Source of the DNA: Patescibacteria group bacterium
GTDB lineage: Bacteria; Patescibacteriota; Dojkabacteria; JAHIVN01
Direction of reading: 5' to 3'
DNA length: 64,000 nucleotides
NCBI GenBank assembly: GCA_043816305.1
Contig: JBDRHZ010000028.1
Coordinates: 3,350-67,349 of the forward strand
A program made the position numbers. Shown one piece after another: positions 21,001 to 24,000 of this stretch. Position 1 is the first letter of the stretch. Each line of letters opens with the position of its first letter.

Positions 21001-24000
21001 CAAATAAAACGTGGGATTCAAAGCTACTACTCCTAAACTATCTAAATATTCAAAAAAGAATTTAGCAACTTACTATGTAACTATCCAACTATGTTATTTT
21101 GTAGCCACTTCCGGTCTTATCCTATGCCAAACTTCACATTGAGGCGGATAGAAATCTCAAGCTGACCGGTCGATATCTCTGTCTGTACTTCATCAGCGCT
21201 CTCAAATGATCGTGCCACGTTCTGTTGTGTATACTGAGAAGCATAATCAATAGAAGCATCAGATATTGATAGTGGATCTAAAAGCTCAACCTCTGCCATA
21301 TCAGCTAACTCACCAGCTTTCTGTTTTGCCTTTCCAAAAGCCAATTCTCTCGCCTGTGTGAAGTAGTCACCTTTTTCCTCTATATCAAACCGTATCCAGC
21401 CGATATAGACATTATCGATCTCCGAAACACTGTCAATGATATTTGCTACTTTCTCAGCCTTTTCATCGATTTTCTTCAATGTAACGTTTAGAGCCTGTGT
21501 AGCTCTTTGACCCTCTAGGTAGCTCTGCCCATTGCGATAGTCGTATTCAGGTGCAAGAGTCAAGTTTTGTGTCTTGATGTCTTCATCCTTTACTCCACCA
21601 TCTTTCAACTTCTTTTTGATTGAAGCTATCTTCTCGTTTACTGCACTTAGAGCTTCTTTGCTTGTCGGCTTGAGTTCTGAAATACTTACATTGAACTCTA
21701 CCATATCCGGCTTTGCATAGACCTTGCCATCTCCAGTTACTGAAATTGAATTGAGTATCTCTCCTTCATCTGTTACACCTGTGCCTATATTCTTTATGTA
21801 GAATTTGGTGCCCTTGACGATAAGTGTAGAGCCTAGGATAGTTGCACAGATAAGAAAAACTACTACAATGGCAGTAAGCTGATTTTTAAAGCTTGATATA
21901 GGCATAGAACGCTTGGATAAATTTAGATATATAATATAGACACACTATGTTACACTTTTTTCAGTATTTCAACAATAGACATGTTCAGTTACAAAAATAT
22001 GTGGTATAACCTTTTGGCAGAGAATGATAAAACATGGACTCAAAACTATTTAAAAGGATAAAGTTTGCTGGAACAATCCTTATAATTCTTACTATATTAA
22101 TTGTACTTGGGATTCTCAGCAATAATATTTCAGTTGAAGAAGCTCAATCCTGGGTCTCATCATTTGGTATTCTTTCTCCTATCATTCTTGTGATTTTATG
22201 CATAGCTTCTATAGTTCTTAGTCCTCTTGTTGTAACACCATTCTGGATCGCCAGCATCAAGTTATTTGGATTTTTCCCGAGTCTGCTATACATATCAATT
22301 GCAAACATTATCGGCCATTCAGCTAATTTCTGGATTGCTCGTATATGGGGACGACCTGTTGTCAGAAAGTTAGTAGGCGAAAAAGGCATCAAAGAAATCG
22401 ACTCCTTCTCACAAGTAATCGGCAGAAAAGTACTGATTTTTTTGAGGATTATTGGAGGTCCAGCTGCAGATTATATTTCCTATGCTGCCGGCTTTACAAA
22501 CATGAAATTTTCTTCATACGTACTTATTACGCTTGTATTTATGAAGCCTTGGACGATCTTCAGCTTCTGGATGACCTACAGGGCTGTTGAGGCAGAGGAA
22601 ATCAAGTCAACAGTTGGTTACTTTGTCATGCTCGCGATACTTACTATCCTTATCACGTTTACTGTATCGCTTATCCTGTCTCGGAAAAAAAAGCAGATTA
22701 GGTGAAATTGATTCGTAGGCATTTATATCTTCTCTGACTCAAAATTAAACTTGGAAAATGAGTATTGGCTTTTGTTTGGTCAATGGGATTTGGGAATTGG
22801 TAACGAGTTATTTCATAGGCACGTATTTCTTGAGTAAGGTCTCGAGATTTATATAGTCCTCTATAAACCAGCCCGGTTTTGAAGTAACCTTTACCCAGGT
22901 TTCACTCCCTAAATTTGAATGAATCTCTCCCGGTTTAATGGCTATATTTTGACCTTTCGACAAAGTATATTCTTTACTTCCCTTAAAAATCTTCAGAGAG
23001 CCTTTTACTACTTCATATGTTTCGGTGATAACATTATGGCAATGAATCGTAGAGTAATCAATAACGGCAATGGCTACACTGTAATCAGCATGATCTGCAG
23101 TCGATTCAATCTCACAAATTATCTCCGTTGTTATACCTTTTGCATTCTTATTCTCAATTATCGTCTTGCCCGGATACTCCCGCTTTAACCGTTCTAGAAT
23201 TTTCTTAACCTGCATATTTTGATAACAAAATATAAAGCTCACTGTCTACCCTTGATTAATCACGGACCTACTATCCTGCTGAATAATTTCTTCCACTGAT
23301 CAAACGTGAGATTACTCCCTCTAGCATTCTCACTGATGTGAAATTCTTTGAAAATCTTAGTAAGCGCTGACTTTTCTATTCTATATATTGAACTCAGATT
23401 CTTGATCAACTTCTTCCGTGGATTCAGAAAAGCGGATCTAAGAAACTTTATGAATTTACTTATATTTGGCGTTTGAGATTTCCCGCCAGAGGCGGGCCAG
23501 CCTTTGGCTGGGAGATTCGAGATTTTTATTATCCCCCCGTCAACCTTTGGCATAGGACTGAATACCTCTTTTGGAACAGTTCCTATGTACTTTGCACTTC
23601 CAAATATCTGAACATAGTTTGACAAGAATGTCCCCTTTGGCACTTTTGCACAGTAATCTTCTGCTACCTCTTTTTGAATGAGCACTGTGATAGTATCTGG
23701 CCGAAATTCCATTTTCAGAAACTTTCTGATTATGAGTTTGGAAATGTTGTATGGAAGAGAGCCAATCAGTTTATAGCTTTTCACTCCGGCAAGTTCACGA
23801 CTAACGTCTAAAGTCATGATATCTTTCCCCATGATTTTTACATTTTCTTCATCCTGAAATCTATTTTTGAGCATGTGTACAAAGCGCTCATCGTATTCTA
23901 CAGCTACAAGTTTTCCTACTTCATTTGCAAGATACTGCGTCAGAACACCTGCTCCCGGCCCAACTTCCAGAACAACATCATCTTTTGACAGGTCAGCTGC

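Follow-up and report, generated by a model that had tools for sequence, protein, structure and literature searches.

Why do two housekeeping genes of one bacterium, rsmA (ksgA) and uvrB, carry similar GC-rich hairpin sequences in frame, and does the likeness between them lie in the DNA or in the protein? The question is raised by a 64,000-nucleotide stretch of contig JBDRHZ010000028.1 (the window, to whose full length all coordinates without a locus label refer). The window is AT-rich (~38% GC), and its proteins point to a metagenome-assembled genome (MAG) of Patescibacteria / Candidatus Dojkabacteria. A preliminary description had read the two sites as copies of one mobile or recombining repeat at the nucleotide level. 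The observation in rsmA was confirmed as real, and that reading is supported by the comparisons described below. The rsmA insert is, on the balance of the evidence, a copy of a widespread, non-coding, non-autonomous mobile repeat that survives in surface loops. The more general claim, that the repeat is selfish and either mobile or gene-converting, is made with considerable confidence.

The unit in rsmA

The features of the rsmA site are as follows.

23260..24075, minus strand: rsmA (ksgA) gene, 271 amino acids from MDIKHK, identical to a 271-residue database RsmA protein (P0001)
23482..23511, minus strand: 30-nucleotide (nt) double-hairpin unit, hairpin A CCAGCCAAAGGCTGG then hairpin B CCCGCCTCTGGCGGG in the coding sense, encoding PAKGWPASGG
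23497..23511, minus strand: hairpin A, CCAGCC-AAA-GGCTGG, with a stem of 6 base pairs (bp) and an AAA loop, in agreement with family hairpin A
23482..23496, minus strand: hairpin B, CCCGCC-TCT-GGCGGG, with a 6-bp stem and a TCT loop, in agreement with family hairpin B
23512..23525, minus strand: upstream heptamer pair (coding sense) beside the unit, AAATCTC GAATCTC, encoding part of KISNL
23468..23481, minus strand: downstream heptamer pair (coding sense) beside the unit, AAATCTC AAACGCC, encoding KSQT(P)

The rsmA open reading frame (ORF) spans 23260..24138 on the minus strand, and the database protein begins at MDIKHK. The coding strand reads AAATCTC GAATCTC / CCAGCCAAAGGCTGG CCCGCCTCTGGCGGG / AAATCTC AAACGCC across the site and is translated in frame as KISNL-PAKGWPASGG-KSQTP. 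Folded as single-stranded DNA, the unit forms exactly two 6-bp hairpins (-13 kcal/mol, z = -4.45), and none of 200 shuffled sequences was as stable. It agrees with all invariant positions of the family described below, in which hairpin A is followed directly by hairpin B. Within its family the rsmA copy is an ordinary member and represents the canonical form of the element; it is the uvrB copy that is unusual.

The four strings assigned to the rsmA element in the preliminary description are present at the positions given there. Both hairpin types are common to the rsmA and uvrB copies, and the central module is indeed missing from rsmA, where the 21-nt middle piece of the uvrB copy (containing TGCCGATCGGCA) is absent. 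The extent originally proposed, 23468-23530, stood only in part: 23482-23511 defines the family, and the outer portion consists of flanking heptamer repeats. GAGATTT, which had been taken for the shared ends of the element, belongs instead to local 7-nt direct repeats whose sequence varies by locus. At the rsmA unit the left heptamer GAATCTC and the right heptamer AAATCTC are alike at 6 of 7 positions, with a further AAATCTC outside.

Alignment to Bacillus subtilis KsgA (6IFS) placed the insert in the interdomain linker, after the final strand of the methyltransferase domain and before the first helix of the C-terminal domain, as had been proposed. The peptide is not general in RsmA: in an alignment of 28 sequences the 10 residues PAKGWPASGG are present in the window protein alone and are lacking in its 27 orthologues. 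Once they are removed, the window linker is as long as that of several orthologues, such as P0010. The RsmA insert is best seen as a tolerated, translated 10-residue loop in the interdomain linker, a passenger and not an adaptation of RsmA.

The copy in uvrB and other copies in the window

The uvrB ORF occupies 13531..15681 on the minus strand and holds the following features.

14420..14470, minus strand: sister copy, 51 nt, encoding PPKADHADRHASQPLAG; the covariance model matches both halves
14456-14470, minus strand: hairpin A of the uvrB copy, with one stem mismatch
14435-14455, minus strand: extra 21-nt piece of the uvrB copy, which holds TGCCGATCGGCA
14420-14434, minus strand: hairpin B of the uvrB copy
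14399..14419, minus strand: three heptamers downstream (coding sense), AAATCTC AAATCTC AAAATTT; Tandem Repeats Finder reports period 7 at 14403-14419
14471..14484, minus strand: two heptamers upstream (coding sense), AAATCTC AAAATTC

Two further family copies in the window are intergenic.

1464..1491, plus strand: hairpin A intact (TCCGCCAAAGGCGGA), hairpin B shortened symmetrically (TCGCTTATGGCGA); covariance-model match at 1460-1495, 26.7 bits, E = 2.4e-7
54236..54265, plus strand: degenerate copy; covariance-model match at 54232-54269, 19.0 bits, E = 9e-5

The likeness between the rsmA and uvrB sites exceeds chance by three counts made in the window. The sites share a 22-nt match of 95% identity (blastn-short, E = 7e-5 within the window). 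All 4 occurrences of TTGAGATTT in the 64 kilobases (kb) fall inside them. Where 0.57 occurrences of the core GCC(AAA/TTT/AGA/TCT)GGC would be expected, 9 were counted, and none of 60 Markov simulations gave more than 2. In addition, a covariance model built from 56 copies, mostly from other genomes, matched the rsmA copy over the full model length with 57.3 bits (E = 1.6e-17), the rsmA copy being one of the 56 training sequences.

The two hairpins are translated as PAKGW-PASGG in RsmA and as PPKAD..QPLAG in UvrB, that is, in different frames; therefore the likeness resides in the DNA and not in the protein. Both elements are short and lie in compositionally biased linkers, which is the setting in which chance, or convergence of two proteins on a similar low-complexity peptide, might have been invoked. 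The difference in frame speaks against such an origin, the window match, the core counts and the covariance-model score rule it out, and more than 120 further copies conserve positions that the search pattern did not impose; its probability is practically nil. The proposal of a mobile or recombining DNA repeat in place of a convergent peptide is thus upheld by the differing frames, the 27 RsmA orthologues that lack the insert, the distribution in UvrB and at least 120 loci elsewhere.

The UvrB loop after ATPSEYE is hypervariable among Dojkabacteria. The closest orthologue (P0122 on locus L002, 84% identity) has no hairpins, and its gene aligns with the window uvrB without gaps except for exactly 51 nt. 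At that position the 30-nt form, TCCACCAAAGGCGGA TCAGCCTCTGGCTGA, is present in a more distant orthologue (P0124 on L001, 76%). Such a distribution would need either two gains at one spot or one gain followed by precise loss. Relative to L002, the heptamers abutting the uvrB unit are different, whereas those farther out can be aligned. For the 21-nt middle piece of the window copy, a single counterpart to TGCCGATCGGCA was found elsewhere, in L109, and otherwise none that is clear. Three independent assemblies of the source population are 99.99% identical, and all of them contain both the rsmA and the uvrB copy.

Just after uvrB in L001 lies a PF05635 gene (4410-4721; 23S rRNA intervening sequence (IVS) / four-helix-bundle, bAvd-like), which is bracketed by the inverted repeats GTAGCTTGTAG and CTACAAGCTAC. 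A link between the unit and four-helix-bundle genes was considered and rejected: the inverted repeats of this PF05635 / 23S-IVS gene are different, and it carries no unit.

A family across bacteria

Species representatives, one genome per GTDB species, were scanned with the pattern CCAAAGGCNGNNNNGCCTCTGGCNG, in which 19 of 30 positions are fixed. At least 120 loci were found, where about 4 would be expected by chance according to our own estimate. Among the matches listed, the hosts are mostly Patescibacteria of many classes. Other hosts in these matches are Ignavibacteria, Bacteroidota, Omnitrophota, Lentisphaerae, Elusimicrobia, Zixibacteria, KSB1, Margulisbacteria, Planctomycetota and Bdellovibrionota, and MAGs labelled Gammaproteobacteria also occur. 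Among the Bacteroidota hosts are Marivirga aurantiaca, which is a named strain, and a Saprospiraceae with a complete chromosome.

The consensus is TCCGCCAAAGGCGGATCCGCCTCTGGCGGA, or, with its flanks, tt / TCCGCCAAAGGCGGA TCCGCCTCTGGCGGA / aa. Its general form is YCNGCC-AAA-GGCN'GR followed by YCNGCC-TCT-GGCN'GR, two back-to-back 15-nt hairpins, of which B is nearly the reverse complement of A. The consensus contains no stop codon in any of the six frames and its length is a multiple of three; hence a gene that receives the unit can be neither cut short nor shifted in frame by it.

Among the matches listed, conservation extends to positions not fixed by the pattern: C at position 2 in 115 of 121 copies, G at position 4 in 113 and C at position 17 in 120. 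In the same 121 listed copies the stems covary, pair 3-13 being CG in 72, AT in 31, TA in 7 and GC in 6, and pair 18-28 being CG in 67, AT in 38, GC in 5 and TA in 4. All four Watson-Crick pairs thus occur at free stem positions, independently in hairpins A and B, while the loops and the stem-closing pairs are invariant. The matches are real family members because unfixed positions are conserved and free stem positions covary. Imposed on the alignment, the two-hairpin structure is 96% paired and yields 84 double-change cells against 29.5 in shuffles (a level reached in 0 of 500). A single long hairpin of 13-17 bp was rejected, as it pairs 81.7% against 96%, and the variable positions pair within hairpins and not across them. 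Outside the unit, T stands at -2 in 91 and T or C at -1 in 96 of the 121 copies in the matches listed. Only TT before and AA after the unit are conserved family-wide, and the flank consensus, AAAWTTY, is roughly palindromic.

No Rfam family matched the unit at gathering or permissive thresholds, the best sub-threshold match reaching 19.7 bits against a gathering score of 69. Neither the sequence nor the encoded peptides were found in a full-text literature search that covered journals open without subscription, which returned analogues only. The unit is also absent from 72,556 plasmids (PLSDB) and 50,697 phages (INPHARED), and only 2 matches occur in the 2.9 million viral contigs of IMG/VR; a plasmid or phage vehicle was rejected on these results. 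The family appears to be undescribed: a double hairpin of 30 nt that spans phyla, is tolerated in frame and is coupled to arrays of heptamers.

Genomic settings and reading frames

About 40% of the copies among the matches listed (49 of 123) lie inside ORFs of at least 150 codons. Of these 49, 42 are in the orientation of the gene and 7 are opposite. A hand count of the 42 listed copies gave 30 in the SAKGGSASGG frame, to which the rsmA unit belongs, 11 in the PPKAD(Q/P)PLAE frame and 1 in an Arg/Trp-rich frame. This bias shows translation of the inserts, followed by a filter that is set by the tolerance of protein loops. The host proteins, identified by sequence, include RecR, GatA, RNase H, UvrC, RadA, topoisomerase I and a glycosyltransferase.

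Other copies are found outside protein-coding genes. A full A+B unit lies inside a class A RNase P RNA gene of a Candidatus Uhrbacteria MAG (L111, 6580-7044), which scores 152.5 bits against a gathering score of 100. Further non-coding settings are a 23S-5S spacer (L045) and intergenic DNA. At L045 1-40 a 23S rRNA helix tip reads CCCCGCCUCUGGCGGGG, the same as hairpin B, and the full unit lies in the 23S-5S spacer of that contig. Between a 5' fragment of a tRNA-Gly gene and the intact copy beside it the difference is exactly 30 nt. Insertion into tRNA D-loops was rejected as an explanation for several copies, since ARAGORN reveals 5' tRNA fragments upstream of intact tRNAs. At three loci of one Lentisphaerales MAG (L042, L099 and L115) a longer palindrome (CTAGCAGC..GGCGGAC .. 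GTCCGACAGGCTGCTAG), within a larger repeat common to all three, bears the unit at its tip; the unit there may belong to a bigger element or lie nested within one.

The conservation of the unit could also reflect a selected function, in which the hairpins would serve as a protein-binding site or as an RNA or DNA structural element, or the peptide as a selected flexible linker, adaptive in rsmA. The invariant loops and closing pairs with covarying stems would fit such a role, as would the persistence of copies within the RNase P RNA gene. At orthologous sites, moreover, units are identical at 28-30 of 30 positions while their flanks are 55-86% identical, although this comparison is biased because both members were found with the same pattern. 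Against a selected function stands the indifference of the unit to its setting, for coding, RNA-gene and intergenic sites are occupied alike, in both orientations and in all frames. Close orthologues also do well without the unit, and decay is evident in three window copies, at 1464, at 54236 and in hairpin A of uvrB. A selected function is accordingly quite improbable.

Filled and empty sites

The clearest pairs of sites with and without the unit come from GatA. The GatA of metagenome contig L142 (7755-9344, P0241) has orthologues of 79-82% identity and varying length. Its C-terminal loop reads (AAATCTC)3 / unit / AAATCTC AAATCTG. Its 80%-identical orthologues in L244 and L246 lack the unit but carry these five heptamers too, which makes the difference exactly 30 nt, and L245 has no array at all. 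In a second loop L142 reads CAAGTTT / A+C unit / CAAGTTT CAAGTTT / A+C unit / CAAGTTT CAAGATT, the second hairpin being TCCCGCGAAGCGGGA. The corresponding loops of L244, L246 and L247 hold arrays of about five heptamers of unrelated sequence (AAATCAC, CAATTTC, AAGCTCC) and no hairpin. Altogether the L142 GatA contains three GC-rich inserts that are polymorphic among ~80% orthologues: NPSTGSGQG near the N-terminus, the duplicated A+C unit and the A+B unit. The architecture of flanking heptamers is therefore common to other hairpin modules as well. Another GatA orthologue, P0270, has a 41-residue Arg/Glu-rich insertion at the C-terminal loop that elsewhere holds the array and the unit. Just upstream of gatA in L246 and L245 there are PF05635-like genes or a reverse-transcriptase gene.

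Similar variation is found among RsmA orthologues. The linker of P0010 (L249, 201-1040) has no hairpin and itself consists of five AAAAATT-like heptamers; in another loop, the same protein carries a 54-nt GC palindrome between GAAATTA repeats. In P0036 (L248, 201-1067) a different GC-rich palindrome, GCCAGCCGAAGCCTTGGCGAAGGCTGG, lies between heptamer pairs at the very linker that holds the window copy. The hairpin-free arrays in L244, L246, L247 and L249 alter the coding sequence and do not always alter the loop length. From these GatA and RsmA comparisons it is concluded that the unit comes and goes as an exact block, that the heptamer arrays accompany it as a separate feature which evolves fast, and that the unit's site in the RsmA linker is a recurrent landing site.

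Heptamer flanks and arrays

The four filled/empty comparisons (RsmA, UvrB, the tRNA fragment and GatA) differ by exactly the unit, yet 12-14% of copies are bounded by 7-nt direct repeats. Among the matches listed, 14 of 121 copies have left and right 7 nt that agree with no more than 1 mismatch (controls: 0.9%), an enrichment not seen at any other repeat length. In a second, non-redundant set the proportion was 17 of 121 (controls: 1.6%), and length 14 gave a signal too, though a weaker one. Of 145 non-redundant units, 46 lie in phase within tandem arrays of 2-6 heptamers, usually split 2/2, 2/3 or 3/2 around the unit, and ~68% of copies are without a recognisable heptamer repeat. The heptamer differs by locus (AAATATC, CAAGTTT, AACATTC, GAAATCC, TACTTTC and others), with AA-NNNN-C as its form in junction phase. 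Within a genome the type tends to be shared: AAATCTC is found at both window copies, 3 of 4 copies in Elusimicrobia UBA6262 have AAC(T/C)ATC, and 2 of 3 copies in an Ignavibacteriaceae MAG have one type. Among unselected members of the family AAATCTC is seldom seen. When metagenomes were scanned for hairpin B with AAATCTC after it, many more copies with (AAATCTC)n on both sides were recovered.

These repeats invite a reading of the unit as a cut-and-paste MITE, a miniature transposable element with inverted repeats. The hairpins would be abutted terminal inverted repeats moved by a DDE-type transposase with 7-bp staggered cuts, the heptamers target-site duplications, and the arrays footprints of insertion and excision. 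The near-complementarity of hairpins A and B suits this scheme, as do repeats of exactly 7 nt abutting 12-14% of the listed copies against ~1% of controls, heptamers that are specific to the locus, as expected of target-derived repeats, and unit-free arrays where relatives carry the unit. The palindromic tendency of AAAWTTY also recalls the target preferences of transposases, which are often of that kind. A simple 7-bp target-site duplication is contradicted, however, by the filled and empty GatA alleles, both of which have five heptamers, and the net change in the RsmA, UvrB and tRNA-fragment comparisons is exactly the unit. Moreover, 30 + 7 = 37 nt would cause a frameshift at every coding insertion. 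We know of no MITE as short as 30 bp, and no parent insertion sequence with such ends was seen. The bacterial MITEs named in the literature consulted measure 100-170 bp (PMC10969869). A MITE origin is therefore considered unlikely.

The sharing of heptamer types within genomes suggests another possibility, in which no dedicated enzyme is involved. Heptamer microhomology between sites would allow template switching or short-patch gene conversion, by which the unit would spread within its genome, the hairpins would escape mismatch repair, and intrastrand templating would make the stems symmetrical and so mimic covariation. Both full window copies have AAATCTC flanks despite the rarity of this heptamer among unselected members, the Elusimicrobia and Ignavibacteriaceae genomes are consistent in type, and gain or loss of the unit leaves flank length unchanged. 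The uvrB site, where the abutting heptamers differ from L002 and the outer ones align, looks as a co-converted patch would. Such a process leaves a near-identical 30-nt sequence in different phyla unaccounted for; recombination would have 7-14 nt of homology to work with, which is very short, and no heptamer repeat can be recognised at ~68% of copies. Enzyme-free spread is, like the MITE, improbable.

Several other stretches of the window contain heptamer arrays or hairpin-like fragments. A perfect tandem (GTATCTG) x 4.3 at 17939-17968, in the spacer between two minus-strand ORFs, is followed by GTTACCAGCTACC; this is a heptamer array without a GC hairpin. A (GGTATCC)-like array of 3.7 units occurs at the 5' end of the ORF 36494..37291 (36496-36605), and ~35 nt after it there is an inverted (GTTACCA)-like array of ~7 units, of the same heptamer type as at 17939. 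In the GC-rich spacer at 58960-59080, beside tRNA-Gly(gcc) (59081-59154, minus strand), there are fragments resembling hairpin B, and the tRNA end is repeated there as AAGCGGTGGAC, perhaps an integration scar. Right after tRNA-Thr, a GC-rich non-coding stretch (3794-3900) contains a hairpin-A-like fragment (TTTGCCTTTGGCA) and has no Rfam match.

How the unit may move

From the comparisons above, we infer the following mode of movement for the mobile repeat. The unit would enter and leave DNA as an exact 30-nt block, typically at the boundary between A/T-rich AA-NNNN-C heptamers. Selection would then retain only copies in surface loops and linkers, mostly in the frame that gives a small flexible peptide. 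The moving process would recognise hairpin shape together with the loop and closing base pairs, which would account for covarying stems with invariant loops. Gain and loss without duplication is the behaviour of HUH/Y1 enzymes (IS200/IS605, RAYT-REP), and a single-stranded-DNA mechanism is for that reason judged the likeliest, though at clearly less than even odds. A hairpin-recognising enzyme in the style of an HUH/Y1 transposase or RAYT, cutting and joining without target duplication, is proposed tentatively as its agent.

Some results weigh against a mobile repeat of this kind. There is no polymorphism at the rsmA or uvrB site among the three assemblies, so mobility in this lineage was not directly seen. 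No transposase or partner gene turned up in the 8-kb blocks around matches or in the 64-kb window, in which no dedicated enzyme search was made. Arrays of about five heptamers, of lineage-specific sequence, exist without hairpins at the same protein sites, and the model gives no explanation for them. The plasmid and phage collections are without the unit and the viral contigs yielded two matches; therefore no vehicle accounts for its spread across phyla. Lastly, the better conservation of the unit than of its flanks at orthologous sites could mean selection on the hairpins.

It is a serious possibility, somewhat short of even, that a class of mobile DNA not described before, and present across phyla, is made up of the unit together with its heptamer arrays. 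Its members would be inserted and removed as exact blocks at the boundaries of self-homogenising 7-nt arrays, by an enzyme or replication-linked process not yet recognised.

Comparison with known systems

The closest functional analogues are the Rickettsia palindromic elements, which are described as elements of ~150 bp in ten families that lie in frame in unrelated housekeeping genes and are translated in a function-compatible manner (PMC10969869). Like them, the unit is palindromic, in frame, translated and located in housekeeping genes. It is set apart by size and host: the Rickettsia elements measure ~100-150 bp and are confined to Rickettsia, whereas the unit has 30 nt, forms one tight family in many phyla and is flanked by 7-nt repeats.

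REP, BIME and REPIN elements occur in many copies per genome, and their mobility is thought to act on single-stranded-DNA hairpins. They resemble the unit (with RAYT, of the HUH type, as their enzyme) in being short, GC-rich, imperfect palindromes of 20-40 nt that form stem-loops and often stand in inverted pairs. REP elements are extragenic and lineage-specific and bear a GTAG or CGTC tag (PMC3733652). In contrast, the unit has neither GTAG nor CGTC (its ends are YCNG at 5' and CNGR at 3', with TT/AA outside, in the 121 copies of the matches listed), lies in ORFs in ~40% of the listed copies and has a sequence common to many phyla.

The palindrome-associated elements derived from IS200/IS605 (PATEs) have a hairpin at each end and are inserted and excised without target duplication. 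In IS200/IS605 elements, which are much longer, hairpin and cleavage site are separated by spacers and guide sequences, and insertion takes place 3' of a defined target of 4-5 nt. The exact change of plus or minus 30 nt at the sites of the unit would fit movement of this kind. The difference is that the two hairpins of the unit are the whole element and that its flank preference is weak, TT/AA only.

Among organelles, the GC clusters and double-hairpin elements of fungal mitochondria and the hairpin elements of sponge mitochondria are mobile GC-rich modules in AT-rich genomes that occupy spacers and are sometimes in frame (PMC4478555, PMC2800124). They too are small mobile GC-rich hairpin modules, but they are organellar and unrelated in sequence, and heptamer arrays go unmentioned in the titles and abstracts of these papers. 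Geobacter metallireducens has multicopy elements of 4-5 tandem heptanucleotides within and between genes (PMC2700814). These resemble the arrays of about five heptamers found with or without the hairpin unit. Unlike those arrays, the Geobacter repeats are GC-rich (GGACCGG, MTYCTGA) and were interpreted as regulatory sites, and no double hairpin is reported with them. The Geobacter heptanucleotide elements may be related to the arrays of the unit.

Significance

In-frame invasion by small palindromes is already known from Rickettsia and from organelles; the unit is far shorter, 30 nt, and is nothing but two hairpins. Its near-constant sequence across phyla, which is unlike known REP and MITE families, implies frequent horizontal transfer or a conserved machinery. 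The carrier Marivirga aurantiaca S37H4 is a named strain and not a MAG, so the mechanism is probably open to experiment. For work on carrier genomes, the unit is a marker of strain-level variation and a caveat in annotation, structure and phylogeny. It also accounts for recurrent Gly/Ala/Ser/Pro-rich insertions and hypervariable loops in proteins of Patescibacteria. If the unit does belong to an undescribed class of mobile DNA, the surface loops of RsmA, UvrB, UvrC, GatA, RecR, RadA, TopA and RNase H, and even RNase P RNA, would be subject to continual remodelling in Patescibacteria and other mostly uncultivated lineages.

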